From contig CDROCS010000641.1 in the NCBI GenBank assembly GCA_977020255.1, positions 310,001 to 374,000 on the forward strand: DNA of 64,000 bases, written 5' to 3'. Of this stretch, positions 13,748-53,416 are shown piece after piece. Under the pieces are notes generated by a model. It did no database searches and was not told the origin of the DNA. It worked only from the letters and a program-made list of their open reading frames with translations. Positions within the stretch are counted from its first letter, which is position 1. The number at the start of each line of letters is the position of its first letter. The translations under genes and the position numbers were made by a program. The DNA comes from Obrimoposthia wandeli (Eukaryota).

Positions 13748-13750
13748 AAC

Positions 13751-18163: not shown

Positions 18164-18776
18164 ATCAGTACCATCTTCATTTACAACTTTTAATTTAATA
18201 TTTAGCAAAGTATCTTTCAAATCCAGATAATCTTCTTCAGATGCATGAATATTAAATTCTATATCATTTAAATTTCCACCAGTAATTGAATTGATTTGAA
18301 TTATTTCTTCTAAACTTGAATTTTCAATCACTTCTTGTGACAATGGTCTATCGAAAATACACAATTCAGATTTTATACTAGTCATTTTGGAAAATAGTAC
18401 CTTTAAGACGTTTGTTTATACTATTTAAATTATTTCCTTTACGTTTAAGACCCTTTCCATTTTGTTTAACACAATTTGCAACTTTATTTAAACTCTCAAA
18501 AGCATTATTTTTTAATTTTAGAATCAAAGTTTTGACTTCGTTTAGTGTATTTTCTTTGAGAGGTGAAATTAAGTTTTTTGGATTTGTTAACGCAGTTCCT
18601 GTCATTTCACCAAGTACATTAGCAGAACTTGTAGCAACTGCTAAACCAACATTTTTAATGAATGGAATAGCTAATCTAGAAATAGTTTGTAACAATCCAG
18701 AGCCATATTGTTTACCAATGAAATAAGGAAGTTCGCCGCCCTGTAGACTTTTGCTATAAAATTTCATATCACTCAA
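18164..18776 (-). pseudogene. MCP N-terminus plus upstream core-like ORF of the decayed lineage A copy
   Basis: MTSIKSELCIFDRP and KFYSKSLQGGELPYFIGKQYGSG are near-identical to 43898-44520. Confidence 0.95.
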
Positions 18777-18799
18777 AAACTACTATGTAGAATATTCAG

Positions 18800-19035
18800 T
18801 ATATGCAGTTCAATATAAATATTTCTCTGAAGTTTGAGGTATACAAGAAATTTCCCTTGAATGTAATATACCAAACGCGTATTTAAGTATATGATGCAAA
18901 TCATATCCTTTGAGATTATGAAACACGATGAGAATGCGTGGTTTCTTAAAGAGTCGACGGCCAAGATTACAAATGTTGCCCACCGCTCTCAAGTATCACC
19001 CCGTAACATGATCGTGGTCTCTGAATAACTTAGAC
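18800..19035 (-). pseudogene. Protein-primed DNA polymerase B (Polinton type) fragment
   Basis: FRDHDHVTG*YLRAVGNICNL...LIVFHNLKGYDLHHILK...ISCIPQTSEKY matches the RDHCHxTGxYRGxAHxxCNL and FHNLxGYD (ExoII) motifs. Confidence 0.85.
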
Positions 19036-20101
19036 TGGAAACCATACAAATAAGAAAATCCACTAGAATTAGAATTAAAATTATTCCAGTCTATGCCAAA
19101 AATGATCATTGCTTGATGAGCATTAAGATCATACCACAGTTTAACAATATTGGTTCTTAACTCCTCTAATTCGAATAAGGCTATATTTTAATTGGGGCCT
19201 AATAACAGGGAGCATGGAGAACAGGAGTCACACCGTCTTATTTATCGATGAATGGAGTCAGATCCTTCTGTGTCGGCGGCATGAAACTCGTATCATTCGC
19301 TGTCGGTTCTTCGAAGAGGTGCTTGTCAGAATCAGGAACGAAGATTGTCTCCGACTGAGACAACGGTATCAACTTCCCCGTGCGTTTCATATCCGCCTTG
19401 ATATTATCGAAGATATTGCTTGGTCTTCTTGCTGCTTCAGCCGAAGTTGATAGATATCTAATGGATCACCCTTAACTCAACTGGATAATACTGCAAGTAG
19501 TTTCAAAATTTAATATCAAAGTTCAATCAATTTACCAGGCGCATTGTAAGCAGCTCTCACAGATTTCAAATGAAACTGAGATTGAATACATTATCTTTAT
19601 CAGATGGAGTAACATAAAACAGTTAATATTAGTAGGTGAATGTGTCCGGTCTAATCCACACCCCCTCCCCCCTCTGTCCTTTAAAACCGTGAATGTGTGT
19701 GGAGTGAAATTTTCTACCCCCTGTCCTTTAAAACCGTGTATGTGTGTCGAGTGAAATTTCGTGCATCTGTGTGGAGTCAAATTTCATGTATGTCACCATT
19801 CCACCCAAAGGGCGAAGGAAGGGGAGTACCCCCCACCACAATTTTTTAAAATTTTACTGCGAATCTCAAAAGTGGTTAGAGAAGACCACGGGAATCCATA
19901 TTGGCCCCGGCGGCTTATCGCAGACGAGATTTTAAATAATATATTACTACTATTTTTAAGAAAGATTTTAGATTAATAAATTACTACATGTTAAATATCT
20001 ATGTCAGTTTAAGAATTTATAGGATAAAAAATCGGTCAGATTTATATAATTTAGAGAAGATAAAACAAAATACGAGACAAAATTATTTTTTAAAATATTT
20101 A

Positions 20102-20659: not shown

Positions 20660-21210
20660 TGAGCACGTTCAATTTTCCACATAGGCAACTTTGTGGTGGA
20701 AGAGGGGAAAGCGGGTTAACCAAAACAGAAGTTTGTAAGTTGAAGGGAATACAATTTATTGAAGGATTTGATGCAAATTGGTGTTAAAGATTGAAAAAAG
20801 AAGATGTAATAATAATTGATGATTTGTATCAGGAAGCTAACAAGGAATCAGACTTTAATAATTTATTTACGAAGATAGCAAGACATCGTGAAGTAACAGT
20901 TATATTTATCACTCAAAATCTTTTTCACCAAGGATATCACCATAGAACAAGAAATCTTAATGTACATTACTTAGTTTTATTTAAAAATCCTAGAGATCAA
21001 ACAGTTGTTGATTTCGTGGCCAGACAGGCATTTCCCCAAAATAAGAACTTTTTAGTTGATTCATTCCACGATGCTGTTAAACAAGCACATTGGTATATAT
21101 TTATTGACTTTACACAAGCTTGCCCAGATGATTTACGTGTTTTAACCGACATATTTAATTCTAAGGGAGTAACTGTTTATAAACAAATAGAGAACAATCA
21201 TAAAAGATAA
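20660..21210 (+). pseudogene. Packaging ATPase (lineage B), Walker A region deleted
   Basis: DVIIIDDL, ARHREVTVIFITQNLF and HYLVLFKNPRD are present; no GxxGxGKT remains upstream. Confidence 0.9.
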
Positions 21211-21225
21211 ATTTATAATGCCTTT

Positions 21226-21717
21226 TAAGAAGTTGATAGTAAAACGTAAAGCAAAGCCTAAGAAATCAAAAAAATGAATCATTAAGAAAAAAGACGTGAA
21301 TAAATTAATCAAATCTGTTGTTAGAAATAAAAGAAAACTTAAATGGCTTCGAATATAAACAATATTCAAATTGAACCTTTTTATTAAAATAAAGAAAATA
21401 CAAAGAGCATACCCTATTTTAAAGATTTGGTCAAAGCCTCTTCTCATAAGAGAATGATTATTATTAAAGCATTTCCATCTTTTGTTGTAGATGATTTATT
21501 GGAAGTTTTGTATAATATAGTTTTGGGTCGAGTAAAAATTGGAAAACGAAAAAATGTATTAAAAAAATATAGAAAAACTCTTCTAGATATTGCTAATGTC
21601 AACAGTAAAAAAAGGAAACGAAATATTATTCTTAAACATAATGGTGGTTTCATAGGAGCTGTTATTGCAGTTGTTGCTTCAATTATCATTAGTATTATAG
21701 CTGCGACTTGTACATAA
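21226..21717 (+). pseudogene. Basic core-like protein with C-terminal GGF-hydrophobic tail (lineage B)
   Basis: KHNGGFIGAVIAVVASIII; homologous to 40711-41121; frameshifted. Confidence 0.75.
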
Positions 21718-21803
21718 ACAATTATTTCAAAAATCACCTAAAGATATGGGTGCTAACCCTTCTTTACCTAAATTTAAATTTTCTTTCTATTCAAATTGTT
21801 GTA

Positions 21804-22709
21804 ATGGAGAAGATATGGTTCAATCCAAAAGATCCAATTGGCTACACAGGATTTTCAAAATTAGCAAAAAGAACAAAACAGAATTACAAGAAAACGCAGA
21901 AATGGCTGAGCGATCAGTTAGCCTACAGTCTGAACAAGCCGATGAGAAGAAGGTTTCCAACTAGAGCTTACAAAACCAGCGCTCCTAATAATTTATGGCA
22001 AATGGATTTGATGGAGATGATCCCATATTCTTCCATTAATAATGGATATCGATATATTTTAACATGTATTGATGTATTTAGCAGGTTTGCTCGTGCAATT
22101 CCAGTTAAAGCAAAGTCTTCAATAGCTATGCTTGAAGCCATTAAAAAAATATTAAAAGAGGACATTCCACAAAATGTGCAAACTGATTTAGGAAAAGAAT
22201 TTTATAATAAGCAAGTTCAATCATTATTTAAACAAATAATATAAATCACTACTCTGTGTTTTCACAATACAAAGCAGCAGTAGTAGAAAAATTTAATCGT
22301 ACTTTAAGAGATCGAATAAAAAAGTATTTCACAAAAGAAGGAAATAAAAAATGGATCCAAGTTTTACTTAAAATAATGCATGCATACAATCTCTCTGAAC
22401 ATAGAGGTCTCAAAGGAATGAGACCTGTTGATGTAACTAATAAAAAGTCTATGGATATTTGGATGGACAGGAATAAAAAAGAAAATATAATAGAGTAATC
22501 CAATAATGTATACTATTAAAGATGCTGACAATAATATCGTTCACGGTAAATTTTACGAGAAAGAACTACAAGTAATATCAAATAAACCTAGCGTTTTCCG
22601 AATTCAAAAAATATTAAAATCTAAGGGTACCGGTAAACATAAACAATACTTTGTTAAATGTAATGGTTATTCAGACCTAACTTGGATATCAGCATCTAAT
22701 ATAATATGA
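21804..22709 (+). pseudogene. Retroviral-like integrase with chromodomain (lineage B), frameshifted
   Basis: WQMDL, QTDLGKEF, VVEKFNRTL; C-terminal FRIQKIL...QYFVK. Confidence 0.93.
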
Positions 22710-24000
22710 AGTCTATGTATATGGTTTTACCTAATAACGGATGTCCGAAGACTCAACCAAATAATTACACTAGTAGCTTTATTATCGATTGGGAAAATCC
22801 TATAAATCTCCAAGGAGAATGGGAAGCGGCTTTAACAGATTTCTTTTTTATTATTCTCCAATTAATATCAGAAAAAACTCACATATTTCGTTTACAAAAG
22901 AAGTTGATCATGAAAAAACAACTGAAGTTGTGATCGGGTTTGATAGTAAAGGAAAATTCTATTACAATTGTATAGATAAAGAAGTGAAAGTAATATTTGA
23001 AAATAACAAAGTCCGATTTAAAAATCGATTAAAATATCTTCAAGTTATTAAAATTAACTTCGAATCTAAAAAATAAGTTCTTCAATTCAGTTTTGATAGT
23101 GGACATGTAGTAGGTATGAAGAGATCTGATATAGCCTCATCTAAATCTTTTAAAAATGTTCCTGGTAGAGTAGCAAGAGTGTTTTTAGTTGAAACGAGAC
23201 CAAAGAATGTAGTGGAACTGAAAATGTTTTCAAAAGATTATAAAATAGATAGTGAAGTGAATTTATGTAAATTAATACAAAAGGAATGTAGTGAATATTT
23301 CGATAAATGTGTAACATTAAAAAATGGTAAATTGATGTTTACAGTAAAGAGCAATGTAAACCGGGTTTCGTTTGATGATAAACTCGCTAAAAACCTCGGT
23401 TTAAATAGAAATACCTTTGAAACCCATACAATAAAAACCATAAAAGCTAAAAATAAGGTAAAACATTTAAATGCTGTTAATCATTTATATATTTATACTC
23501 ATTTAATAGAACCAACGCTTCTAGGAGGACTGCGAGTTCCACGTTTGATAACAATATGGATATCTCAAAATCAAACTAAAGATGGGGACGCTGTTGATAT
23601 GTGTATAGATCAACAAATGTATCTTCCAGTTTTTCTTTTTTCTATAAACAATATTGAAGTAAATATTAGAGATGATTCCGGACAACTAATAGATTTCAGG
23701 TACGGGGCCAAGACAAGTTTAACAATACATTTAAGAAAACAAAATTTGAATCCGGCAATAATTGAAGCTTATAGTCAAAGCCAACAAGGTGGAGAATTAC
23801 CATATTTTGTTGGTAAACAATATGAATCTGGCTGGCTTAGAACATTATGTAGATTTGCCTTTCCTCTTTTAAAGAGACTCGGGCGATTTTATCAAAATAA
23901 AGAAAAGATTACCTTTCATCTAATGACAATAAACTAATATCAACTTTTAAGAAGCATGCACTTAAAGAAACTTGACTGTACAATTTTGGAGGGTATAATG
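22706..24000 (+). pseudogene. Minor capsid (penton-like) plus core-like ORF (lineage B), disrupted
   Basis: MYMVLPNNGCPKTQPNN, LYIYTHLIE, SINNIEVNIRDDSGQLIDFRYGAKTSLTIHLRK, then QQGGELPYFVGKQY. Confidence 0.85.
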
Positions 24001-36112: not shown

Positions 36113-37322
36113 AGTAGGTACTTTGATGGAGTCTAGACCACTGGGGGGGGGGTCCCCCCCTTATGTGCGCACACCAAGTTAAAGGGTGTCACACCATAAG
36201 GGTGTCACACAATAGAAATGTCACACCATAGCGTGTCACACCATAAGGGTATATGTTGCCTCACCATAGGGGTGTCTTGCCACACCATAAGGGTCTGGCT
36301 CAGAAAGGTTATGAAGGTTTGAAGGTATGGTCGTGACCGTCTATGGTCGGCCAACATACCCAAGGGGTTGTGGTCGTCCATAGATCAAAGGGTCGGGGTC
36401 AGTTTTGACTTGAAGGTTTGAAGGTATGGTCGTGACCGTCTATGGTCGGCCAACATACCCAAGGGGTTGTGGTCGTCCATAATTCAAAGGGTCAAGGTCA
36501 GTTTTGACTTGAAACTTTGAAGGTATAATTAAGGTCAACTATGGTTGGCCATCACATCTAAAGGGTTGTGGTCTTCCATAATTAAAAGGGTCAAGGTCAG
36601 TTTTGACTTGAAACTTTGAAGGTATAATTAAGGTCAACTATGGTTGGCCATCACATCTAAAGGGTTGTGGTCGTCCATAATTCAAAGGGTCAAGGTCAGT
36701 TTTGACTTGAAACTTTGAAGGTATAATTAAGGTCAACTATGGTTGGCCATCACATCTAAAGGGTTGTGGTCGTCCATAGGTCAAAGGGTCGGACTCAGTT
36801 TTGACTTGAAACTTTGAAGGTATAATTAAGGTCAACTATGGTTGGCCATCACATCTAAAGGGTTGTGGTCGGTCATAAATCAAAGGGTCAAGGTCAGTTT
36901 TGACTTGAAACTTTGAAGGTATAATTAAGGTCAACTATGGTTGGTCATCACATCTAAAGGGTTGTGGTCGTCCATAGGTGAAAGGGTCGGGCTAAAAACC
37001 AAGTCAAGTTTAAAATATCAAGGTTTTAGTACATGGTTGGAATCATCTTTAGAAGGTGAATTCAGTCATAAAGTATGGTCGGTCATATATGAAGGAGTCG
37101 GGATATAGACCAAATCAAGTTTTAAATGTCAAAGTTTGAATACATGGTTGTAATCATCTTTAGAAGACGAATTCATCCATATAGGTATGGTCGTCCATAG
37201 ATGAAGGGTTAAGAAAAGTTGGAATTTCATAGTTTCAAGTACATGGTTGTATTCATCAACATATTACGAGTTTAATCATGTAAAATTTTTATGGTCGTTC
37301 ACAAGTTAAGGGTCAGATTTGG
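36113..37322 (+). repeat. Left TIR with 7 copies of a 99-bp repeat; patchy homology continues to about 37980
   Basis: Reverse complement of 46618-47535. Units start at 36318, 36417, 36516, 36615, 36714, 36813 and 36912. Confidence 0.95.
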
Positions 37323-39235
37323 AACAAACATGATAATTTTATTACATGGTTGTATTTGCATATGAAAATTGACTTCAAAAATACCCTTAAGGTCATGCAT
37401 ACTTTAAGAGGTCCTTGTGAAAAAAAAAATAAAAAATACTTGTAATTTTCTAAAATAAAAATATTTTTAAATTTAAATTTGTGCCAAATTATTTTGTTAG
37501 ATTTTGGTAAAGATAAACAAATTTTTAATTTAACAAGTTTTTAAGATATTAAAGTAACATTATTTAAAATAAATATTAAGGAAAAAGTTAATAAACTCAA
37601 ATTACTTTACTAATAGTATTATTATTATTATAATTTGATAAATATTTAAATTTACGCAAATTTTTATCCATTTTATTAATGTAATTAAACAATTCTTTGC
37701 GGAAAAATTACTTGTAATTTTGTTTTTCTTCAAAATAATAATAATTTAAATTTGCGCCAATTTAATTTGTTAGATATTAATAAAGTTAAACAAATTTTAA
37801 TTTAACAAGTTTTTAAATATTAAAGTACCAACACATCTATCAATCAATTATTCTATGTGAAAGTTCACTCTTATCAGTTAAGGAATGTATTACGTAATAA
37901 TACACACACTATTCTATGTGAAAATTTAGTACAAAGTTTTTCCCAGGCTTAGGCATCTAAAGAATTATGGTAAAATTTCTTTAAATAACTTAAATTTCAT
38001 GTCATAAGGGTCTTGGAGAAAAATACTTGTAATTTTCTAAAATAAAAATATTTTTAAAATTTAAATTTGTGCCAAATTTTTTATCGTTTCTTTGATTTAA
38101 TTAAACAAATTTGATTTTAAACATAATGTTAATTATAAAATAATTAATAATTTGATAAAAATTCATCTTACCTCAAGTTATTCATTGAATCCATTGATGT
38201 ATGTCCGTCAGCCTAATAGCATTATTCTATAATCTTACTGTAACTTTAGAAAAAATAACAAATTTATTACATTAAAATTTAAAAATTGCGCGGTTTTTTA
38301 TTGTTTACAATTAATGTATTTAAACAATGAAGAAAATAGTTTCAAACGCAAAGCAATTCATATTAACAAGTACTATTTGATATTTTTAAAATATAAATAA
38401 TTTATTTAAAAAATAATACTTCAAGTTCAAGTTAAATTTTGATAAAAGTCTGTAAAATGATAAATTCTAACATATTTTTTTTTTTAAATTACCGCCATTT
38501 TTATATTATCCCTTTTGATGTATTTAAACAAATGTATATACAAACCTAATTATTATAACTATAAGTTAAATATCTTAAATATTTATTAATTTTAAAATTG
38601 CATTATTTTATGATTGTAATTTATGCCTAAAATAATTTGTAATTTTCCAAATTAATACTAGCAACCAATGAATAACATTAATATTATGTTTACATTATAT
38701 TAATTAATATGTAAATTTTCATGTGTGTGTTTTCTCTCACATAACTTTCACATGTTATAATGATCAATTAACACTCACATAAATAATTAAAACATCCTTA
38801 TAACTTTCCTTAATTGATTTTTATTTAAACTGATAAAATTAACTTCACGTTATTCAAAGTTTACTAGTTAAAGAAATGTTTATTTATATAATTTGAGTAT
38901 TAACATTATTCGATTTACACTATAAATATTCGAAAATATCTTTAACATATTAAAAAAAAAAAAATAACTTCAATTTTTAAAATTTGTATCGAATATTGAA
39001 AATTCATTTGAAAACACATGTTTTTTGTCTATAAATTCGAATATAAAATCTTTAATTATATTGTTTTATATGTAAATAAATTAAAATATGTACATATTCG
39101 ATTATCAACTTAGTATTTATATTTATTATTCGACTTTCTAAAATAATTAAAATGTCTTGTAAAAACACATAAAATTAATTATCGATTGTATGAATTAGTA
39201 CAAGTATGAATGCAAATATGAAGGCAAATACTAGT

Positions 39236-39660
39236 AAGTGGGTTTAGCAAGTGAATGTAATTGAAAAAAAAATAAAAATAAGAGTGTCGAGAGTTTGATT
39301 GAATGCAAGTGTAATTTAGACTATAAGTAAATTAAAATAGAGTTTTCGTTGAATACATTATAGTTAGATTGAATGCAAGTATGAATGTAAGTGAATGCTA
39401 GTATGAATTTCAATACAAGTAAGTGGGTTTAGCAAGTGAATGTAATTTAAAAATAAGAGTGTCAATAGTTTGATTGAATTCGAGTGTAAGTTAGACTATA
39501 AGTAAATTAAAATAGAGTTTTCGTTGAATAAATTATAGTTAGATTGAATGTAAATGAATGCAAGTATGAATTCAAGTGAATGCAAATACAAGCAAGAGTC
39601 TTAGCAAGTGAATGTAATTGAAAAAATAAAAATAAGAGTGTCGATAGTTTGATTGAATGC
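39236..39660. repeat. About 2.3 copies of a roughly 185-bp direct repeat rich in TGAATGCA/TGAATGTA
   Basis: Units start near 39236, 39421 and 39594; the last runs into the ATG of ORF 39657. Confidence 0.85.
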
Positions 39661-40001
39661 ATTTCCTAAAAACCCCGTGGATTCATTCAATGTCCGATCC
39701 TGTGACATTGTCGAAGACATCATACAATTATTTAGTAACTGATATTAACGAAAAAGATATCAACGTATTGAATGATGTTTTTAAATATCTGAAGATTGAT
39801 GTCGAACTCGAAAATGAAAATCAATTTATGCGAAGTAATAAAAACAAGTTTTATGATTGTTCAGGAAAGAAACTTCAAGATATTCAAGAAGATGGTAAAA
39901 GTTGGATGATAGAAATCAAGATTCAAGGATATAAGATCAATTCTAAGAACGAAACCTCAATCATCTGGCGAATAAATGCTGCTAACGAATATTTTTGTTG
40001 A
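39657..40001 (+). CDS. Unknown 114-aa protein, possibly OB-fold ssDNA-binding
   Basis: Intact ORF. The C-terminal pattern FYD..GK.L...IEIKIQGYK...SIIWRI recalls T7 gp2.5/NCLDV-like SSBs (impression only). Confidence 0.45.
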   Translation: MHFLKTPWIHSMSDPVTLSKTSYNYLVTDINEKDINVLNDVFKYLKIDVELENENQFMRSNKNKFYDCSGKKLQDIQEDGKSWMIEIKIQGYKINSKNETSIIWRINAANEYFC

Positions 40002-40071
40002 ATAATAAAATGTTGTTATTGTTATAAACATGTACTTATTCTTATATATTTTATATTAATAATCATATATA

Positions 40072-40690
40072 ATGTTATTAACTAACAATTCAACTTTTCA
40101 AGTAGTAGGTCCAAGTGGTAGTGGAAAAACTTTATTTGTTTGTAGATTATTAAATTCAAAAATGTTTAAAAATAAATTTAATAAAATATATTGGCATCAA
40201 GGTGGTGACGGAGAAGCTGGTTTAACAAACCAAGAATTTAATAAAATAAAAAACATTAAAATTATTAACGGTTTTGACGAAAATTGGATGACAAGACGAT
40301 GTAATTGTTATCGATGACTTATATCAAGAGGCTAACAAAGAATCTGATTTTAATGATTTATTTACAAAAATTGCAAGACATAGAGAAGTTACTGTAATTT
40401 TTATAACCCAAAATTTATTTCATCAAGGAGGAAATCATCGTACTCGTAATCTTAATGTACATTATTTGATTTTATTCAAAAATCCTAGAGATCAAACAGT
40501 GATAGATTTTATTGCTCGTCAAGCATTTCCTCATAACAAGAGTTATTTAATTGATGCGTTTCATGATGCTACATCTTTACCTCATGGTTATTTATTTTTA
40601 AATTTTACTCAATCATGTCCTGATGATTTAAGAATTGTTACTGATATATTTAACCGTAATGGTATTACAGTCTATAAACAAAATAAATAA
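40072..40690 (+). pseudogene. A32/FtsK-like packaging ATPase, frameshifted near 40300
   Basis: Walker A GPSGSGKT, Walker B DVIVIDD, ARH motif, ITQN. A short deletion relative to lineage B shifts the frame. Confidence 0.95.
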
Positions 40691-40710
40691 TAATAATGTT
40701 TTAAAATAAA

Positions 40711-41121
40711 ATGAATTTTAAAAAGAGTATTCTTAAACATAGTAAAAGGACAGATAAAGAAGAAGTTAAAAAATTAATAAACACTGTATTATATGATCGT
40801 AATAATAATGAATTTTCAAAAAGTTTACCTTATTTTAAAACCTTAATTGACGTATCAAAAACGAATAAAATGAAAATGTTGAAATCATTTCCAATTTATG
40901 TAGTTGATGATTTAATAAAAATTTTAAATAAAATAATTTATGGTAAAATTAAACCTGATCCTAATATTTTAAAATATAAAAATTCATTAATAAATTTAGC
41001 AAATTCACGTGGTAAAATTAATAAAAGAAACATTATTTACAATCAAAATGGAGGATTCCTATTGGCCATACTGCCCGCTATAGCATCAGTAATAGCTGGT
41101 CTTATAAGTTCAAGAAGTTAG
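40711..41121 (+). CDS. Basic core-like virion protein with QNGG/FLL protease-site-like motif and hydrophobic tail
   Basis: Lys-rich; ends NQNGGFLLAILPAIASVIAGLISSRS. xGG/x resembles adenain cleavage sites. Confidence 0.8.
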   Translation: MNFKKSILKHSKRTDKEEVKKLINTVLYDRNNNEFSKSLPYFKTLIDVSKTNKMKMLKSFPIYVVDDLIKILNKIIYGKIKPDPNILKYKNSLINLANSRGKINKRNIIYNQNGGFLLAILPAIASVIAGLISSRS

Positions 41122-41155
41122 AAGTTTTAAAAAAAAAAAAAAAAAAATTATAAAA

Positions 41156-41474
41156 TTATATAAGAGTCTTACAAAGTAACATTAATAAGAAACTTACATT
41201 AAATGTTGAAGTATATTCTCCCGATGTACCAGGAACTATTGTTGTTGATGCTGATGTAGGAATCATTACCGCGGCTGCTAGTCTAAAACAATATTAAAAT
41301 TAATTTTAAAAAGAAAAAAAAATTACTTTTCATGTTTCTTACTCTGCATATGAGCATCCATTGAATATTTATTATTCATTGGTCCTGTTTGACAAATTTG
41401 GCAATTAAATCTAAATATAAATCATAATTAAAAAAATATATATATAAATATATATAATAAACTCACGTATTCAT
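41156..41474 (-). CDS. Spliced zinc-finger minigene (matrin/JAZ-type C2H2): join(41474-41467, 41410-41327, 41282-41198, 41167-41156)
   Basis: GT-AG introns of 56, 44 and 30 nt with donors GTGAGT, GTAATT, GTAAGT; phases are consistent. Gives MNTFNCQICQTGPMNNKYSMDAHMQSKKHEKLAAAVMIPT... The third intron is optional because it is in frame. Confidence 0.75.
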
Positions 41475-41820
41475 TTTGAGTCTTGATTTATTTAAATTAA
41501 AGAAAAATAACAAAATAGTAAATTATATTTAATTTAACATTTCAATTTATAATAGATATCCTATTATGTAATTTCAATTATTGATAATAATATAATTATC
41601 TCAATTGCTACAATTGAATTGTGCCTATTTAATTATGATAGTTGCCTTAATAACGAAAATTATAATAATAATATTAAATAATTACATTCTTTCGTTTTAT
41701 ATATATATATATATAAACACGTTAAAATATATTTAACTTTTAATTCAAATAATAAAATAATGGGGATAAACAATACAAAGATGTCTAACTTATTTATAAA
41801 TTTTAATTCTTCATGCTGCA

Positions 41821-42846
41821 ATGGAAAAGATTTGGAACAATCCAGAAGATCCAGACGGTTATACAGGGTTAGAAAAATTGACAAAAAGAGTCAAACAATC
41901 AAAAACAAACACACAAAAATGGTTAAGAAATGAATTATCATATAGTCTGAATAAACCTTTAAGACGTAAATTCCCTACTAGATCATATAAAACTAATGGT
42001 ATTAATTCGTTATGGCAGATGGATTTAATGGAAATGATTCCTTATTCTTCAGTAAATAACGGATTCAAGTATATTTTAACTTGTATTGATGTATTTAGTC
42101 GTTTTGCAAGGGCAGTTGGTGTTAAATCAAAATCAGGTATTGATTTATTACATGCAATAGAATCTTTAATCGTTGATGATGTACCAGTAAATATCCAAAC
42201 TGATGAATGTAAAGAATTTTTTAATTCACATGTTAAGAAATTATTCAAATCTAAAAATATCAATCATTATGCAGTATATTCTCAATATAAAGCTGCAGTT
42301 GTTGAAAGATTTAATCGGACTTTAAGAGATCGAATGAAAAAATATTTTACTAAACAGGGTAATAAGAAATGGATTGAAGTTTTACCGAAAATTATTTATG
42401 CTTATAATCATTCTAAACATAGAGGATTAAATGATTTAAAACCTGTTGATATAAATAAGAAAAATGAATTTGATATTTTGTTGAGTCAAAATTCAAAAGT
42501 CAAAAAGAGTAAGGCCAAGTGTAAATTTGATGATTATGTTCGAATTTCTAAAATAAGTATTAGTCCATTTATTAAAAATTTTAATCAAAATTGGAGTGAT
42601 GAGGTTTTTCAAATTCATGATATTAATTATAAACAAAGTCCAATAATGTATGTTTTAAAAGATATTGACAATAACATAATTAAAGGAAAATTTTACGAAA
42701 AAGAATTGCAAGTAATCGATAAACCAGAAATATTTAGAATTCAAGAAATTTTAGAGACTAAAGGTCGTGGTAAGAATAAACAATATTACGTAAAGTGGCA
42801 CGGATACTCTGAACCTTCTTGGATATTCGCTTCTCAAATTGAATAA
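41821..42846 (+). CDS. Retroviral-like DDE integrase with C-terminal chromodomain (341 aa, intact frame)
   Basis: WQMD, QTDECKEF, VVERFNRTL; chromodomain FRIQEIL...YYVKWHGYSEPSWI. Confidence 0.96.
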   Translation: MEKIWNNPEDPDGYTGLEKLTKRVKQSKTNTQKWLRNELSYSLNKPLRRKFPTRSYKTNGINSLWQMDLMEMIPYSSVNNGFKYILTCIDVFSRFARAVGVKSKSGIDLLHAIESLIVDDVPVNIQTDECKEFFNSHVKKLFKSKNINHYAVYSQYKAAVVERFNRTLRDRMKKYFTKQGNKKWIEVLPKIIYAYNHSKHRGLNDLKPVDINKKNEFDILLSQNSKVKKSKAKCKFDDYVRISKISISPFIKNFNQNWSDEVFQIHDINYKQSPIMYVLKDIDNNIIKGKFYEKELQVIDKPEIFRIQEILETKGRGKNKQYYVKWHGYSEPSWIFASQIE

Positions 42847-43860
42847 TGTCAAAATATATTATTTTACCTAGTAATAGTTGTCCGAGTACTCAACCTAGCA
42901 ATACAGCCAATCAATTTACTGTAGATTGGGAAAACTCTCTAAATTTAGATGGTGAATGGGAGGTTGCCTTGACTGAATTTGTATTTAATTATACTCCTTT
43001 AACAATACAAACTAATTCGAAAATACTTTATAAAACGGAAAAGATAGAAATGAAAACTTTCGATGTATCTTTTGCAATTTTAAATGGATTAATTTTTAAT
43101 AATTTAAATAATGTTTTCAATTTCAAAATTACAAAGGATCAAAAATTAGAAATAAGTACAATTAACAGTATTCATCGAATGTTGTTAAAATTCGAAACTT
43201 TAGAAGAATCAAAAATTATAGGTTTTAATGAAATACAAAAAAGTTCTAGTCATGTTATAACAAGTGATGAAATTGTTGACATAAATAAAAATATTCATGC
43301 TAAAATGAGAATTACAATTTATTTTTTTAGCTGAATATGAATACGAAATAAAATTTAATCAAAATTATTTGATACAAGATAGTTCTTCATTATGTAATAT
43401 TATAGCCAGTAAATGTAATGAAATTTTTAAAAGCTGTAATATAGATTCAAACGGATTATTTGATATTTTAATAAAGAAAAATGTAAAATCAGTTTTATTT
43501 GACGAAAAACTTGCATCTTTATTAGGTTTAAATAATGTTTTCTTTGAGAAACGAATTAAAGGTTTTCAAAAACCAACACTTTCTAGCTCATATAATCAAA
43601 TGTATATTTATACTAGTTTAACAGATTCTGTCTTAGTAGGATCTGATTATGTTCCACTGTTAAAGTCTATTTGGTTAAAATCATTAAAATATCGATATGG
43701 AGATGTAGTAAATGTTAAAATTGATAATCCAATGTACTTGAAAATGAGAGATTCAAGTATTAATAGAATCGAGGTAAATATACGTGATGATTCTGGTAAT
43801 TTAATTCCATTTTCATATGAAGCAAAAACTAGTTTAACTCTTCATTTACGTAAAGTATAA
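42846..43860 (+). CDS. Minor capsid (penton-like) protein with a +1 frameshift in a T7 run near 43325
   Basis: YIILPSNS...NTANQFTV...GEWEVALTE; MYIYTSL...; IEVNIRDDSG...SLTLHLRK. Removing one T joins the two ORFs. Confidence 0.85.
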
Positions 43861-43897
43861 ACAATATAAATATATTTAAAATATAAACACATATAAA

Positions 43898-44303
43898 ATG
43901 AATACATCAATTATAAAATTTTATAGCAAAAGTCAACAGGGCGGTGAACTTCCCTATTTCATTGGTAAACAATATGGATCTGGTTGGTATCAAACTATTT
44001 CTAGATTAGCTATTCCATTTATTAAAAAAGTTGGTTTATCAGCAGCTACAAGTGCTGCCAATGTAATTGGTGAAACGGTAGGAACTGCGTTATCAAATCC
44101 AAAAAACATAATTTCATCTCTCAAAGAAAATACAATCAAAGAAGTCAAAACTTTGATTCCAAAATTAAAAAAATAATGCTGTTGAGAGTTTAAATAAAGT
44201 CGCAAATTGTGTTGAACAAAATGGAAAGGGTCTTAAACGTAAAAGAAATAATTTAAATAGTATAAACAAACGTCTTAAAGGTACTATTTTCCAAAATGAC
44301 TAG
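43898..44303 (+). CDS. Core-like protein with QxGG and GxG motifs; +1 frameshift in an A7 run near 44170
   Basis: QQGGELPYFIGKQYGSGW. The copy at 18378-18776 has A6 and an open frame. Confidence 0.85.
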
Positions 44304-45516
44304 TATAAAATCTGAATTGTGTATTTTCGATAGACCACTACCTCAAGTAGTGATTGAAAATTCAAGTTTTGAAGAAATATTTCCAATCAATTCAATTACT
44401 GGAAAAAATTTAAATGACATAGAATTTAATATTCATGCATCTGAAGAAGATTATCTGGATTTGAATGATACTTTCTTAAATATTAAATTAAAAGTTGTAA
44501 ATGAAGATGGTACTGATTTAATCAAAGATAACGATGTAATTCCAGAGAATTACATGTTTCAAACTTTGTTTAGAGATGTTATTCTAACACTTAATAATGT
44601 AAAGGTTGAAGGAGGAAATGGAACGTATACTCATAAGGCTATATTCGATACTCTTTTGAATTTTAGTAGTGATACCAAGTATACTAACCTTGAATGTAGT
44701 GGGTATGATGATGATGCAGAAAATCGTAAACAATGGATTAGTGAATCTAAAATATTTTCATTGTGTAATTCAATTAGATTAGATTTCTTTGATCAACCAA
44801 AATATTTGATTCCAGGGATTAATGTTCATTTGAGATTTATGAGAAATCAGCATAATTTTTTGCTCTATTCAGAAACTTCAAAACCAATTATTCAAATTCT
44901 AGATGCTAGATTGTATGTTAGAAGAGTAAAAGTTGATTCTTCAGTAATGATTGGACATCAGTTAGGTTTGCAAAGTCAGAATGCAGTTTACCCAATTAGA
45001 AAAACTCAGTTAGTAACATATTCAATTCCTCAGGGTTCTTTGGAACTTAATAAAGATCAAATATTCGGAGACTATCGTTTACCCAAGTTCATTTTGATTG
45101 CTTTCAAAGATACACCTCAGGGTGGTAAGGAATACAAAGTTAAATCTTCTACGTTCAATACATTTAATGTTTCAACAATATCATTAGCTAGAAATACAGA
45201 TTATCGAGAAACTTATAATCTAGATAATAACAATTTTTCATTAGCATATATGCAGTCAATTATTCGAAATATGAATATTTTAGATAAAAACTTGAATAAC
45301 GGTATCAGATTTTCTGATTTTAAATCAGGAAGTTCGATTTTCACTTTTCTATTAGCACCAGATTTTGATATAAACACTACTCAAGTGCCTAAAACTGGTA
45401 ATTTAAGACTTGAAATTAGATTTAATTCTCCTTTGACCGTTCCAACAAGTGTTTTGATTTACGGAATATTTGATTCCGAAATTCAGATTACGAAAAATAA
45501 AACTGTGATTGTATGA
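44296..45516 (+). CDS. Major capsid protein (double jelly-roll, Polinton type), 406 aa intact
   Basis: KSELCIF, IEF.I.....YLDLNDT.L, LDFFDQPKYLIPGINV.LRF.RN, LYVRRVKV, GNLRLEIRF...L..P..VLIY. Confidence 0.93.
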   Translation: MTSIKSELCIFDRPLPQVVIENSSFEEIFPINSITGKNLNDIEFNIHASEEDYLDLNDTFLNIKLKVVNEDGTDLIKDNDVIPENYMFQTLFRDVILTLNNVKVEGGNGTYTHKAIFDTLLNFSSDTKYTNLECSGYDDDAENRKQWISESKIFSLCNSIRLDFFDQPKYLIPGINVHLRFMRNQHNFLLYSETSKPIIQILDARLYVRRVKVDSSVMIGHQLGLQSQNAVYPIRKTQLVTYSIPQGSLELNKDQIFGDYRLPKFILIAFKDTPQGGKEYKVKSSTFNTFNVSTISLARNTDYRETYNLDNNNFSLAYMQSIIRNMNILDKNLNNGIRFSDFKSGSSIFTFLLAPDFDINTTQVPKTGNLRLEIRFNSPLTVPTSVLIYGIFDSEIQITKNKTVIV

Positions 45517-45889
45517 AGTAAGCTTATTGTATATTATATTCTTTATTTAAATTAGTACTTTAGAAATTTATAAATCCGGAAAAATATTATTGAATAACAA
45601 ATTTAATGGAGTATATTCATTGGATAAAATTCCATCATTAAAACCCGGAGGTTACATTATCAATACTCATACTTCAAATCTGCCAGGCGAACATTGGATA
45701 GCAATATTCGTTGACAGATTCGAGATTCGAGTGTTTGATCCTTTTGGATTCTATTATCCTTCAAAGTTGGTGTCTACACTTGAAAAAGAAAACATTCCAG
45801 TCTACTATAATCGAGTTAAATGTCAGAATCCATTAACTAAAAACTGCGGACCTCTGAGTCTTTTATGGTTGAAACTTCAACAGAAATAA
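45513..45889 (+). CDS. Adenain-like cysteine protease with a 38-nt intron: join(45513-45517, 45556-45889)
   Basis: Catalytic residues in GEHW, FDPFG, Q and NCG. ATG AA|GTAAGC...ATTAG|T ACT TTA GAA ATT gives MNTLEI; the unspliced frame has no in-frame ATG. Confidence 0.88.
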
Positions 45890-45942
45890 TTTTAAGTATA
45901 AACAAATATATATCATTTTAGTATTTCATTTTATTTTTTCAA

Positions 45943-46395
45943 ATGGCTTTTATTGATTTAGAATGTTTTATTGATAATAATGGAGAATATATTCCAAAGG
46001 AATTATGTATAATGTATGTGAATGATATGACTTGTTCATTTCATTATGTGTTTAAAAATCAAATACCATGGAGTAGTTTATCATTTACAGTTAAAAGAAA
46101 AAATCTATATTTGATAAATCATCATCATCAGTTATCCTGGTTTGAAGGTGAAAGCTCTGATATTCATATTGATGATGTTGAAACAATATTCTATGTTATG
46201 GATTCTATTGATGGAAAGAAAATTAATTTAGTGAAACGAATGTTTCCAAATTTGAGAATTGTGAATTATAATAAAAGTTTCAAAAATTTAAAGAAAATGC
46301 CAAAAAATATTCGATGTCCGTTTAGAAAACACGGAAAACATTGTGCTTATTTGAAATGTTTTTCTCTATGTATTGATTATATAAATTGTATATAA
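45943..46395 (+). CDS. 150-aa protein with N-terminal FIDLEC motif (possible DnaQ/DEDD-like fold) and a C-terminal Cys/His cluster
   Basis: Intact ORF, also present in the copy at 11064-11518. The fold assignment is inferred from the DxE beta-strand only. Confidence 0.7.
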   Translation: MAFIDLECFIDNNGEYIPKELCIMYVNDMTCSFHYVFKNQIPWSSLSFTVKRKNLYLINHHHQLSWFEGESSDIHIDDVETIFYVMDSIDGKKINLVKRMFPNLRIVNYNKSFKNLKKMPKNIRCPFRKHGKHCAYLKCFSLCIDYINCI

Positions 46396-46617
46396 ATATA
46401 TTTATTAAGGATATTTTATTTTAATATATAATTTATGTTATTTAAATAAATTTTACCATATTTCTTTAAATGCATAAGCCTGGAAAAAAAAAAAACTTTG
46501 ATCTACATTTTCACATAGAATAGTGTGTGTATTATTACGTAATACATTCTTTAACTGATAAGAGTGAACTTTCACATACCGTAATTGATTGAATACTATA
46601 TAATTCCTTAATTTATG

Positions 46618-47535
46618 CCAAATCTGACCCTTAACTTGTGGACGACCATAAAATTTTTACATGATTAAACTCGTAATAAGTTGACGAATACAACCATGTA
46701 CTTGAAACTACAAAATTCCAAATTTTCTTTAACCCTTCATCTATGGACGACCATACCTATATGGATGAATTCGTCTTCTAAAGATGAATACAACCATGTA
46801 TTAAAACTTTGACATTTAAAACTTGATTTGGTCTATATCCCGAACCCTTCATATATGACCGACCATACTTTATGACTGAATTCACCTTCTAAAGATGATT
46901 CCAACCATGTATTAAAACCTTGATATTTTAAACTTGACTTTGTTTTTAGCCCGACCCTTTCACCTATGGACGACCACAACCCTTTAGATGTGATGGCCAA
47001 CCATAGTTGACCTTAATTATACCTTCAAAGTTTCAAGTCAAAACTGAGTCCGACCCTTTGATTTATGACCGACCACAACCCTTTAGATGTGATGGCCAAC
47101 CATAGTTGACCTTAATTATACCTTCAAAGTTTCAAGTCAAAACTGAGTCCGACCCTTTGACCTATGGACGACCACAACCCCTTGGGTATGTTGGCCGACC
47201 ATAGACCGTCACGACCATACCTTCAAACCTTCAAGTCAAAACTGACCCCGACCCTTTGATCTATGGACGACCACAACCCCTTGGGTATGTTGGCCGACCA
47301 TAGACGGTCACGACCATACCTTCAAACCTTCATAACCTTTCTGAGCCAGACCCTTATGGTGTGGCAAGACACCCCTATGGTGAGGCAACATATACCCTTA
47401 TGGTGTGACACGCTATGGTGTGACATTTCTATGGTGTGACACCCTTATGGTGTGACACCCTTTAACTTGGTGTGCGCACACAAGGGGGTGGGACCCCCCC
47501 CCCCCAGTGGTCTAGACTCCATCAAAGTACCTACT
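46618..47535 (-). repeat. Right TIR with 4 copies of the 99-bp repeat; patchy homology from about 46445
   Basis: Near-identical reverse complement of the left TIR. Confidence 0.95.
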
Positions 47536-50500
47536 TAAATGGAATCGAAATAACATGAAATTTATATATTTAAATATTATTAACATATTAAAAACAACAT
47601 ATTAATATTAACAAATAATAAATTATAAAAATAACTATAAATAAAAAATGCATATGACAATTTTAATGTATAAAATTATATTATATTAAAATACATTCCA
47701 AAAATGCATTTCAAACATTCTAAATCTTTTTAAATGATTTTACACATAAAATTAAATTAAAAATAAATGGTAAAACATCCAAAATTAATATTTCAACTTC
47801 TTTGAATAAATTGTTTTAATAATACTTATTTATTTTTGTGAGTTTTTAGAGGCAAATTTAAAATTAGGAATGACTGTCGAATACTGCCACTTTTGTTATT
47901 ACACTTGATCCAAATTTGGATCATAGCTTTAAATATACTCCATGAGGATGATATGATAACACTTATACGAGTAGAGGGCAAATCCCTTATTTACAATATG
48001 AACACAACTCAGCTTTCATGTAAGAAAAAATTATTTTGAACTTTTTTATAACTGATAAAACCCATTAATGCATGCAACTATACGTCACATATTTTCCGTT
48101 TACTTATATTCATCCAAGGCCCCACTGATATAATGAACTCATGTCTTCCTAATTTGAGAATGTAATTTTTTATTTAGGAAAATGTTGTAATATTTTTCCC
48201 CAACAAAAAATCCTATAAGTGTTTGTTTTTATTTGATGTCAAATCCACGTAACAAAAATTAAACGCCTGCTAAAATCAAGAAATGTTTATTCATTATTTA
48301 ATTTATAAAAGGATTACATGCTACAATTCCAATTGAAACAAACAGATAAATAAGTACATAGATATATAAATAAATTTAAAACAACGAATATGAGTAGAAG
48401 AATGTGTATTAAGCAAAATGTTTTAGACACATGTATATTTTAAAATTTATGATTACTACATCTAATTTTAAAAAGATGAAATTTTTTACTAAAATAATAT
48501 AGAATATATGATAAAAGGAATTGGTAAAGATGACCTTAAGATGACTCAATTTGAAAACAGTTTCTGAGATCTTTAATTAAGATTTGTAACAATTCCAACT
48601 GTTGTGATCGAGTCTCGCAATGGAGACGCCACAGTATGTATACAATGGAAACATTTAATTATCTTAATTAGTAGAAATTCAAAAAAGTTCAGTTAAACTA
48701 GAAAAACTAATTAAAGATGAATGAAAGTTGTTAAAAAAAAGTATATAGATTGTTTAGCGTTTCAGTTCATTGAATAAAAATTTTAAATAATTTATTAATG
48801 TATCGGTCTATCTCACAAAATTGTACAAAAATTGGGTAAATATATAATAGATTCTGACCATAATTAAATTATTTAAAATATATTAGTATTTTTACATAAA
48901 ACATCATATCAATTATTCTACTGAACTAAATACGTTTATTTTGGTTTAATTTTGAGGGAATCAATTTTCTGTAATGGAAATGAAAAGAATCATTAGAAAC
49001 TTTGAATTGAAGATAATGTTTCTCTTGTTAGGTGTAGAATTGTCTTTAATAAAATGGATATTTTATTAACGTTCAGTTACTATTTATTGATAGTAATATA
49101 TATATTTATATTAATGCTAATTAAGGTTTAGTTTGAAATTAAAATTGACATCAAATTAGGGATTTGTATGTATGACATTTTAAATACTGTATAGACCCGC
49201 TAATACAAGGACCACTGGGGTCAGTAAATGTCGTCTCATATATTGAGATATTTAATTTCAAATTTGAAAATTTAAAAAAACTCTAAAATGCAAGTTTATG
49301 AGCAATTTTTCACTATAGATTTTGTTAGAATTTCTTTTATAAAGTCATCTAAGTAGTGTTGAATAGTATAAAGAACCTGAAACACTAGATCATTTAATTT
49401 ATTTAAAATAAATGTGTTCAAAATAATATGCAGATGATAAGTGTTTTCTATTTGCAGTCATTTATATACTAAAATTTGATGAAGTTTCTTGACCATTTAG
49501 ATAATGATAAACTCCTTTTGATCAATATTTAAATGAGTTAAAATATCAACCAGGCCATTAGCCTCAATACCACAATTTGGGCGTGATAATTAAATAGCAA
49601 AATCTGTTTCGAAATTAAAAAAAAGTATTTGAATAAGGATGTGTTGAAAATTCCCGATATTGGTATAATTTATCAAACAAAACTACGGGATTGTAGTACA
49701 ATTGTTAATTTCCTTTTAATTGAAGATGGTGATACCCATTATTATTGCGGAGTTTGTAATTGAAATATTTTTCGAACTGAGGTTGCTTATGATAAACATA
49801 AAACTCATTCTAATTTTAATACTTATACTACAACATTATTCACTATACCAGATGATAAATATTGAGAATTCACATATTGGTCAAAGTCAGTTCAACCTCG
49901 TTTTGCAGTTTACGCTGATTTTGAGACTATTTTAGAACCTGATGTGACTGTTAAACTTGTATATATATATACTCCAATTGCAGTTGGAATGTTGTTGAAA
50001 TATAATGTTACAAATACTATCAATATTTGTAATATTATGGTTTAGAGTCTAAGTTTAAGCCAATCTTTACCACATAAGAAATTTAAGTGTATGAATTATA
50101 ATTTTGATGATATTTTAAATTTAGTTAAAAGCAATAAGGATTTGACTAAAAACGCATGGGGTTATATTGTTAAAATCTATTTACATATTCCAGACTGCAT
50201 ACATAATAAAGTTGATGATTTACCTATTGGACTACATAAGATGTGTCCATCAAACCCAAAACTCCTAAATTGCTTATGACACGTAATAATAAAGAGCATT
50301 ATATAATACATTACCATCTACTCCAATTTTATGTTTTTCTTCGTATATAATAGGGCTATTTGGTTTAAACATGCATCCTTTTAAAACAGTATATTGATTT
50401 TAATTCAAACAAGCGTTCAACTAGTTTCAATAAGTTTAAATATGAATTTTATGAGTTAAAATAATTTGGTTTACGATAAAGCCGTTGAGAATCTTAAGAA

Positions 50501-50558
50501 ATGCTTGATATTAGATTATGTAATAATTATAAACGATTTGTAAAATTAGTGTCTAGTC

Positions 50559-52275
50559 CAGGGGTGGGGAACCTTTTCATGTGTGGAGGCCACACATAAA
50601 TTTGCCGCCCCCAATGAGGCCGCAGTCAATAAGTGTAACTATTTTTTACTGTAATTTTTTACCTTTTATTAATATTATTTAAATTAATAACTGCACGAAG
50701 TAAACATGTATTTTAAGACAAAAAATTATATTTATTCACTTACCTTTTTAATAATTTAATGACTTCTTTGAGATTGCTTCTTGTGAGACAACATTTTGAT
50801 GTCGGGTTCTAACATGGAGGTTTTAAGTTTTAATTGGTCTTCCAGATGCTCATCTGTCATCTGTGTTCTCAACGAATCTTTGATATTTGTTAAATGTGAG
50901 AATGTGGATTCACAACAGTATGTCGTAGAAAAGCACGAAATCAATCGACGAGCATGTTCGCGAAGGCGAGGGTATTCTACCGCTTTTTTCCAAATTTCAA
51001 CGGGATCTTCCTTACTAAGAAACAGAGATTTCAGAATATTATCTTCAGATAACTCAATAAGCTCCATTTGTAAATATTCTGGTGCCTTTGATACTTAAGG
51101 GTGCCTAAAGCGAGCAATTCTTCATATATATGAAAATCTTCAGTTACAGCACGAACAAAATACAATACTTGTGCAGAATCAGTTGAATCTGTTGACTCAT
51201 CCAAAGCTATTGAGTAATATACATTTTCTTTTTGCATTAATTTTGAAGTTGCTCAGTTACATTGCGAGCTAACTCATGCTGCCGATCTGTATTAGTTCTT
51301 CTTGAAAGAGGTACGTCTTCATATTTTTTAACTTTATCTGGATCTAAGCATCTTACTACTTCAACGATACATTCCTTTATAAGTTCTGCATCGCTAAATG
51401 GCTTACCTTTTTTCCCAAGCAAATATGCCACTTTATAACTTGCCTCGGTCGTAGCATTTCCTTGATGTAGGCCTAACAATGAATTGAATATTTGTCTTTG
51501 CTTTAGCTTTCCATCTTTTAATTTATTCAATGCAATTTTACGAGCCTCCCCCTCTAATTTGGCATAGTTATTGTCCTTATGAGCAACATAGTGCTTGTGT
51601 GCATTGCATTTCTTTAATGTTGAAATTACGGTATCACATAACAAGCAAGTCATTTTATCATTATTAAACACTACAAAATACTGTAGTTCCCATTTGTCAT
51701 TAAACACTCTGTTTTCTTCTTGCAGCGTTCTTTTTAATTTTTTAGCCATGATGGGTTGTTTAACTAATATATTTATTTAATCTGAAAACATAAATTATTG
51801 ATTAATAGTGTTAGTGAAATAATAATTTACGAAACTAAGATTTATTTAAGATTCAAAAAACTGCCTTCATTTCGTTTTTTTAAACAACTTCCGTTTATTT
51901 GGAGATCTATAGTAAATATAATTCTTTATGCGTATTTCATTTTGACAACGTTTGCTATTCGTAGTTTAATATGATTAATTAATTTATAAATGAAATAGTT
52001 ATTTAATTACTTAATTATTAATTATTAATTAATTATTGTTTCTTAATTCAATTTGAAATATTATTTAATTATTGTTTCTTAATTCAATTTGAAATATTAT
52101 TTAATTATTGTTTCTTAATTCAATTTGAAATATTATTTAATTATTGTTTCTTAATTCAATTTGAAATATTATTTAATATTACATAATTATTTAAAATTAT
52201 TATTCTTATAGGAGGCCGCAGTTGATGAGCTTGGAGGCCGCATGCGGCCTCAGGGCCGCAGGTTCCCCACCCCTG
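50559..52275 (-). mobile_element. Non-autonomous hAT (Buster/Charlie-type) element, 1717 bp
   Basis: 16-bp perfect TIR CAGGGGTGGGGAACCT; 8-bp TSD GTCTAGTC. Transposase N-terminus (CLLC...HY zinc finger, SIALDESTD) is joined to the dimerisation domain (FSTTYCCESTFS), with the middle deleted and a frameshift near 51237. Confidence 0.96.
52035..52180. repeat. 37-bp tandem repeat x4 inside the hAT element
   Basis: TTAATTATTGTTTCTTAATTCAATTTGAAATATTATT repeated. Confidence 0.9.
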
Positions 52276-53416
52276 GTCTAGTCCCATCATACTCAAATAA
52301 ATTATGATTTGAATTTAGTTTTTATATAGAAACACAAAATATCTCGATCAAGCTGTACTCGATCTATTTAAATTACGAATGTATCAATGTTGAGCTTGAA
52401 CTTAAATGGTTTTATTCGAATTGTAGCCTTGGATACAGATTCCTTTTTACTTGAGTGTACAAATATTAATAAAGATACATTGCTTAAAGAAATGATTAAG
52501 GAGGGGTATATTTTTAACTAAAAACTTTGTAATATTTTTATAGAATGTATTTCCTAAAAACCATTAGTTAACAATAATTTACCAAAATTAAAGTTTTTTT
52601 CAGGTAACCCATTTTTCATTTTTTTGAGACTGATTTTGTTATTTCTGCAAATTAGTGAAATTTAAATTGAGGTTATATAAGTTTTGTATTTATAAATAAA
52701 GTAGTAAATAATGCATACGTTATATTAAAATTATTATCAAAATTTTCAGTCACTTCCAACTATGGTATATTTTTAATAATTACTTTCCTGATAATTCTTT
52801 TATTTTAATTTAAAAAACAACAAATTGTCTCATTTAGAAATACTTTGAATACATGACTAGAGTATTAATTTGTATAAAAGGTTAACCCGTTTTATTACAC
52901 AAAATATTGATTTTACACGTTCTAAAATAGAATAATTAGTTATTACAATTAATTATTTATTAGGAGATGTTACGAAAACATTAAATGCTTCTATTTGTTT
53001 CTTCTAGATTCCATTCTTGTAAATGAAAGTTATATTTAGGTTTCTAATTCAGAAAAATTCTAATTTCTAAATTAAATTAGGCTCATTTATTTAAAAAATG
53101 TTCACTATACATCGAAATTTCATAATCTGTAACTGTGATATCATTTTCCATAATAATTTGTTCAGTATCTACATTCGATATATAAATTTTACTAACTAAA
53201 TTAGTCAATTAATTATATAACAATATTACAACTGCATCATCAGATATTAAATCACAATTTAAAATATTTTTTGTCGTATTCAGAATGCAAAATTATTTCT
53301 AAAAATCTTATTTTCATTATAGAGAAAATGTTCATATTGCACTGTGTTATCGGTATGAAAAACTAATAATTAAAAATCACATATGGCTATGTATTTGATG
53401 AAACTTTAAGTAAAAA

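Follow-up and report, generated by a model that had tools for sequence, protein, structure and literature searches.

A predicted spliced, antisense gene for one matrin-type zinc finger inserted between core genes of a Polinton

A 638-nt block set between two plus-strand genes of a Polinton/Maverick (adintovirus-like) element contains, on the opposite strand, what we predict to be a small spliced gene for a single matrin-type zinc finger. The exon–intron anatomy, the finger, an insertion site that leaves both neighbours whole and a gain that can be placed on the integrase tree form the observed part of our explanation. The explanation itself, for which we judge the case for and against to be about evenly balanced, is that the block would be an accessory micro-gene borne by one Polinton subfamily, spliced by the host and encoding an RNA-binding protein with one such finger. 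All coordinates are those of the window, the whole 64-kb stretch of DNA analysed, unless a related locus is named (Table 1).

Table 1. Features of the insert, its predicted antisense gene and the surrounding element
Feature	Position	Strand	Basis and remarks
Polinton/Maverick (adintovirus-like) host element	36113..47535	+	11.4 kb; target-site duplication, terminal inverted repeats (TIRs), rve integrase
GGF ORF, left neighbour, intact	40711..41121	+	30-40% identical to syntenic ORF of close relatives
638-nt block replacing the 26-35-nt spacer of relatives	41122..41759		AT-rich; comparison with relatives
19-A run (T run on gene strand)	41129..41147	+	Sequence; 7 nt after GGF stop
Tail of uncertain status, after strong donor at 41197	41156..41197	-	Splice-site scoring
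Predicted exon 3, 28 codons	41198..41282	-	40% GC; 71% S/T/A/P/G/V, no Lys/Arg; contigs cover it in 4/4 runs
Predicted intron 2, 44 nt	41283..41326	-	GTAATT...TAG; 9% GC; donor weak, 3.3 bits (generic matrix)
Predicted exon 2, 84 nt, entire matrin-type finger	41327..41410	-	29% GC; profile and motif
Predicted intron 1, 56 nt	41411..41466	-	GTGAGT...TAG; 9% GC; donor joint-best of 21 in block
Predicted exon 1, coding part, 8 nt	41467..41474	-	ATG at 41474
Upstream region, 285 nt, putative promoter and 5′ UTR	41475..41759		14% GC; head-to-head with Met-Gly ORF/integrase
Met-Gly ORF with Cys-Cys motif, right neighbour, intact start	41760..41933	+	Overlaps integrase start; 34/39 examined copies
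rve integrase with chromodomain-like C-terminus	41821..42846	+	rve E 1.6e-9

The host Polinton and the slot of the insert

The host element is bounded by a 6-bp target duplication (TAAATG), ends in AG...CT and has long TIRs whose arms are 95.7% identical over 582 nt. Its plus-strand gene run consists of ORF39657, an ATPase, the GGF ORF, the integrase, a minor capsid protein, a PZ-like protein, the major capsid protein, a protease and a PW-like protein, and the syntenic homologues of its core genes in relatives are 35-80% identical. The element has both the TIRs, 6-bp duplication and AG...CT ends and the integrase, ATPase, capsid and protease gene set of a Polinton. The names of the core genes other than integrase (capsid, PZ, PW, protease and so on) are presumptive, being taken from synteny and motifs, and the capsid ORF matched 0 Pfam families. 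We take the GGF ORF, likewise presumptively, to be a virion core-like protein with a protease-site-like GG|F motif and a hydrophobic tail.

A protein-primed PolB (pPolB) gene, which is also among the marks of Polintons, was sought inside 36113-47535 and gave no match; long polymerase ORFs are present in relatives L017 and L006. Three frame breaks lie in the ATPase, penton and PZ-like genes. The element is a decayed, non-autonomous deletion copy that lacks a polymerase. Its integrase frame is open, yet the protein deviates at two almost invariant alignment columns next to the second catalytic Asp, which is another sign of decay. Elsewhere in the element, the AT-rich left arm holds small exon-like islands with GT/AG signals on the minus strand (38170-38240 and 38445-38500), in which we saw no long frame. 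The window also holds further Polinton fragments (10762-13518, 18164-18768, 18798-19160, 20798-23934 and 49608-52506), among them inverted pieces 82-92% identical to 36113-47535, lineage B at ~70-73% and polymerase relics, one of which spans a transposase-like ORF pair at 50756-51749.

The preliminary description of this locus reported a block of roughly 700 bp between the GGF ORF and the integrase that was reduced to about 90 bp in a second copy, lineage B, and we measured 699 and 86 nt, respectively, from GGF stop to integrase start. The lineage B gap is indeed short, but it is mostly not spacer: it consists largely of the start of a conserved small ORF beginning Met-Gly, which this copy also has. 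The spacer proper is 26-35 nt in the 12 of the 14 other clade members in which it was measured, and 638 nt in 36113-47535. Judged by this comparison, the block is a gain of ~610 nt within a spacer of ~30 nt, and it breaks neither the GGF ORF nor the Met-Gly ORF and integrase. The 19-A run near its left edge is likely either the left junction or the pyrimidine tract of an intron. A retrocopy origin of the finger gene was rejected on two grounds, the presence of introns and the wrong orientation of this run.

The Met-Gly ORF occurs a second time in the window (from 21746, +) and among loci L001-L076. It carries a Cys-Cys or C-x-C-F motif and, in the 34 positive copies, overlaps or abuts the start of the integrase with the relative frame unchanged; the 39 examined include 37 of 80 related loci, picked for high integrase identity, and in 2 of the 5 negative copies a similar ORF was seen on other inspection. 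N-myristoylation is predicted for it, and it is a candidate lipid-anchored virion protein. Homologue searches with the GGF ORF and the Met-Gly ORF as queries returned none, though the fetched Polinton loci keep both, and literature and homologue searches gave no match for the Met-Gly ORF. In more distant relatives (L020, L022, L025, L027, L033, L039, L043 and L054), the same slot between GGF ORF and integrase holds an intronless plus-strand Pro/basic ORF. Because these relatives fill the slot with a different ORF, it appears to be a variable accessory slot.

Predicted exon–intron structure

The antisense gene depends on splicing for its start: exon 1 contributes the only Met available to the finger, exon 2 itself contains none, and the unspliced frame has no Met before the first Cys of the finger. 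The junctions 41467/41410 and 41327/41282, proposed in the preliminary description, are correct and in frame by sequence, the splicing itself being predicted. The predicted introns have 9% GC and the exons 29-40%. A micro-intron filter, chosen after the locus had been seen, returned one candidate over the full 64 kb on both strands, and this was intron 2. Two signals count against the predicted splicing, namely the weak donor of intron 2 (3.3 bits) and a stronger donor within exon 2, at 41342 (6.1 bits), whose use would truncate the finger ahead of the last His.

The earlier model let the gene run to 41156. It holds as far as 41198, but the end is doubtful on account of the GTAAGT at 41197; in the whole 11.4-kb element, the minus strand has just 3 donors of the form GTRAGT, this one included. 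After this donor, GC content drops to 21% and then to 13%. Exon 3 likely ends here, and on splice-site scoring the last 13 codons of the earlier model may be intronic. We examined five 3′ routes: the product has 72 aa if 41156-41197 is retained and 62 aa, with the same stop, if a 30-nt intron is removed; and acceptors at 41101, 41095 and 41077 give 63, 64 and 73 aa, respectively, and run antisense into the GGF ORF. All five yield 62-73 residues with a common 59-residue core, and none of them provides the 41197 donor with an intron of host size (44-56 nt). The next minus-strand AATAAA lies ~560 nt off, inside the ATPase gene (about 40591-40596).

This 3′ end bears on our main alternative, which is a real possibility if a doubtful one: the block may be the hitch-hiking 5′ part of a host matrin-type gene with several fingers, comprising its promoter, three exons and the beginning of intron 3, which entered at the A/T run through recombination at the DNA level and was then amplified passively with the subfamily. 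Such an origin would account for the strong donor at 41197 and for the intron-like DNA that follows it as far as the T run beside the GGF stop; the lack of a host-sized intron and of a dedicated poly(A) signal fits a 3′ truncation, and exon 3 resembles an inter-finger linker. However, every 3′ route examined gives a compact, stop-terminated product. The layout also bears on a very improbable reading in which any function lies in the RNA and not in the peptide: a transcript antisense to the GGF and ATPase genes would lower the expression of virion genes or feed the production of small RNAs. The convergent arrangement, the candidate acceptors inside the GGF ORF and the distant AATAAA are consistent with this, but it leaves a full four-ligand finger in an exon of its own unexplained. 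That the finger fills one exon exactly, needs the Met of exon 1 and sits in a 59-residue core kept by all 3′ routes speaks for the accessory micro-gene that we favour.

A single matrin-type finger

The finger encoded by exon 2 has the form C-x2-C-x13-H-x5-H, with Cys6, Cys9, His23 and His29 as ligands. The preliminary description had assigned it to the matrin/U1/JAZ type, and one of these three affiliations stands: exon 2 alone passes the cut-off of Pfam zf-met (PF12874; 23.9 bits against 21.2, E 5.2e-5, residues 11-26), but it falls below that of zf-C2H2_jaz (PF12171; 20.5 bits against 22.6) and gives no zf-U1 (PF06220) row at E<=1. By its profile, then, the predicted spliced gene is matrin-type (zf-met). 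Exon 3 matches no Pfam family. In a phmmer search of 1.84 billion proteins, the finger had 13 matches at 33-41% identity, all 13 of them C2H2 proteins and 10 with a zf-met row, and its neighbours in the protein atlas (at 0.92-0.93) are C2H2 clusters or unnamed. A PDB sequence search with the finger returned 0 matches at E<=10. The finger HMM finds one finger only in the window.

These data speak to whether splice-like signals and a Cys/His motif could have come together by chance in AT-rich DNA, a reading to which we give next to no credence. GT/AG signals are common, the Pfam E-value taken alone is modest for a 64-kb window read in six frames, and the single-sequence AlphaFold model of the product (mean pLDDT 56.9) is uninformative and too weak for a fold search. 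However, 1 of 3000 dinucleotide-shuffled versions of the 638-nt block contained the finger motif, the exon edges coincide with the steps in GC content, and the in-frame ATG exon uses a top donor. The finger HMM, which was built from exon-2 matches and is thus biased upward, scores 42.5 bits on the block against at most 8.2 in the shuffles.

The residues that follow the finger bear on its function. In the ZFa, JAZ and Wig-1 class, a basic helix follows the last His of the dsRNA-binding fingers. In this finger, 1 Lys/Arg is found in the corresponding 10 residues, as opposed to at least 2 in 75 of 87 related cellular fingers, and the full predicted product has only 4-6 Lys/Arg and 3-4 Asp/Glu. 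In addition, PIWI silencing is not known to use long dsRNA. These points weigh on the idea, raised in the preliminary description, that the product might be a suppressor of small-RNA silencing. In the form considered here, this would be a host-spliced single-finger microprotein, missed by ORF annotation, that would bind or sequester structured or double-stranded RNA and so shield the element. The idea draws on the inter-His motif H-x-Q-S-K-K-H, which resembles that of Xenopus ZFa finger 1, on the described preference of ZFa, JAZ and Wig-1 fingers for dsRNA (PMC5100589) and on a description of Polintons as piRNA/PIWI targets in a planarian (PMC8532177). The likeness between the His residues holds, but with the jaz cut-off missed, one finger in place of several joined by long linkers, and a post-His helix that is not basic, the dsRNA-binding argument is weak and we consider a silencing suppressor unlikely.

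Gain of the insert and origin of its introns

An integrase alignment was used to fetch 80 related loci (337,055 nt), and 28 of these together with two window copies form the rows of the integrase tree; the lineage labels are our own. The element falls within a clade of 15 rows (97/91), and the 14 others lack the block. Since the element is nested among 14 members with an empty slot, the block is a gain on this branch. Lineage B is the sister (95/85), on a row that is only 42% filled. The 80 loci yielded no homologue of the finger exon, and tblastn with exons 2 and 3 gave no match there at E<=1e-3. Viral contigs searched with the integrase, the integrase alignment, the capsid and the finger pattern yielded nothing. 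Matches to the finger pattern in genome contigs were set aside as chance, all 5 of 5 being bacterial DNA of 48-61% GC that lacked the His pair or was closed by stops.

The preliminary description called the gene captured or evolved cargo. Its gain on this branch and its absence from lineage B agree with that, but the introns do not prove capture from a host, because a spliced polymerase leader is predicted in relative L017, where a leader exon is connected through a 49-nt GT-AG intron with a polymerase frame of 1,174 codons (12747-12562, -). In total, 6 micro-intron candidates were found in 4 of the 80 loci. From the sequences of these relatives, the introns appear to be native to this Polinton clade. 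L017 also has a further 52-nt candidate intron upstream of the one in its leader, and candidates outside core genes lie at L007:1303-1342, L024:2721-2773 and L045:11292-11493.

For the host-fragment origin, introns that appear native to the clade are a difficulty, and so is the identity of 33-41% to the best cellular matches, among which no close source was found. Most of the best protein matches, however, are multi-finger cellular proteins, as that origin would predict, and intron-bearing host cargo has been described in nematode Mavericks (10.1101/2022.07.12.499685).

The spliced leader suggests a further reading, quite improbable in our view, in which the block is a displaced copy of such a leader (finger, flexible linker and donor) from another Polinton, without the polymerase body. 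The gene lies on the same strand as pPolB does in L017, whose polymerase has the predicted micro-intron leader; the polymerase of L045 begins with a matrin-like finger, C-x2-C-x12-H-x5-H (9660-9595, -); and the phase-0 donor at 41197 is left without an evident partner. On the other side, neither exon 2 nor exon 3 has a tblastn match in the 80 loci, the L045 finger scores <10 bits with the finger HMM and the leader exon of L017 shows no such finger.

Further features were seen among the relatives. A matrin-like finger lies near a Polinton polymerase gene at L079:13423-13355 (-). Loci L006 (222-722 and 2393-2869), L017 (2160-2621) and L001-L003 include accessory ORFs that we presume, from motifs, to be ubiquitin-conjugating-enzyme-like and TBP-like, as well as duplicated minor capsid genes.

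Copies in sequencing runs

Four runs of one sample, none on record as RNA, hold the region, and their contigs were compared over 40900-41287 only (exon 3 and the GGF side). Exon-3-like DNA is present on many contigs of the sample in all four runs, at a summed depth of ~3,000-18,000 against up to ~398,000 on the GGF ORF, depth not being the same as copy number. Contigs spanning both exon 3 and the GGF ORF are absent, the A-run repeat stretch being skipped, no joints are listed over the compared stretch, and the deep exon-3 cover is not placed in Polintons. Within exon 3, there is one listed substitution (n=1), a synonymous third-position change in 3 of 4 runs, and no listed indel; the sole listed indel of the block lies past the 41197 donor, in 4 of 4 runs at ~2-4% of depth. 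In the 24 of 119 rows listed, loose contig ends at 41177, 41244 and 41258-41259 point to diverged exon-3 variants. The contig data hint at a multi-copy gene and are too thin as a sign of selection. The intactness of the gene in this copy is likewise uninformative because, with ~3 frame breaks in ~5.9 kb of core, we estimate that 0.2 kb would stay open neutrally in ~90% of cases.

Discussion

We propose that one Polinton branch gained the insert in the spacer that separates the GGF ORF from the Met-Gly and integrase genes. Transcription on the minus strand would start from the AT-rich, 285-nt head-to-head spacer, and host splicing would then lead to a protein of 62-73 residues with one finger and a neutral Ser/Thr/Ala-rich tail. 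The finger would bind zinc and may contact helical RNA through its H-x-Q-S-K-K-H helix, and the product could serve the element as an RNA-binding adaptor of low affinity. Its targets might be the element's own transcripts, in a clade that appears to splice a polymerase leader, or host RNA-processing complexes. The preliminary description had offered a regulator of the element's RNA alongside the suppressor, and the product may be such a regulator. The copy at 36113-47535 is a decayed passenger, and any function would belong to working members of the subfamily.

These predictions have implications for how Polinton genes are counted. The genes of Polintons are catalogued by scanning for ORFs and are usually described as intron-free (PMC8097293). 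A predicted spliced micro-gene within the core run, a predicted spliced polymerase leader in a relative and a conserved Met-Gly ORF concealed by its overlap with the integrase start suggest that Polintons contain a set of small genes that such lists pass over. Should the finger prove to be under selection, it would be a small and inexpensive candidate for the way in which Polintons deal with RNA control by the host; otherwise, the locus is a record of gene-fragment capture by a virus-like element.

Relation to known systems

Vertebrate Mavericks, as described in PMC8097293, share with 36113-47535 the TIRs, the 6-bp target duplication, the AG/CT-type ends and int, atp, capsid, pro, pw and pz-type genes, and they are reported there to be free of introns. 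Introner insertions are described in dinoflagellate Polinton-like elements (PMC11957031). Our literature search, with most subscription papers, Repbase Reports and supplements outside its scope, did not turn up any description of a spliced gene for a single matrin-type finger within the core run of a Polinton, and adintovirus gene tables in supplements may already name these ORFs.

The ZFa, JAZ (ZNF346) and Wig-1 proteins have in common with this finger the H-x5-H spacing and the inter-His motif Q-S-[KR]-K-H (PDB 1zu1, 2mkd; PMC5100589). In contrast to the one finger and neutral tail predicted here, they are described as having several fingers joined by long linkers (PMC5100589), and basic residues follow their last His.

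Nematode Mavericks carry intron-bearing cargo (wasp proteases and krma kinases) next to core genes described as intronless (10.1101/2022.07.12.499685). As is predicted for our element, a gene with introns lies on the left-TIR side of the integrase. However, that cargo is described as enzymes of hundreds of residues in a 2-5-kb GC-rich variable region by the left TIR (10.1101/2022.07.12.499685), whereas we found 638 nt of AT-rich DNA within the core run, with one predicted finger in antisense and no close cellular source among its protein matches.

The adintovirus accessory genes 'Ziftr' (10.1101/2024.03.25.586562) and 'Oncoid' (PMC8502044) are also zinc-binding. Ziftr is described as CTCF-like and Oncoid as having a CXXC and an Rb-binding motif (10.1101/2024.03.25.586562; PMC8502044), whereas the finger here is single and matrin-type; the descriptions of the two genes, as far as they go, make no mention of splicing, whereas the antisense finger would need it for its start codon. 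Like both of them, the antisense gene is a non-core gene with zinc ligands in a Polinton/adintovirus genome.
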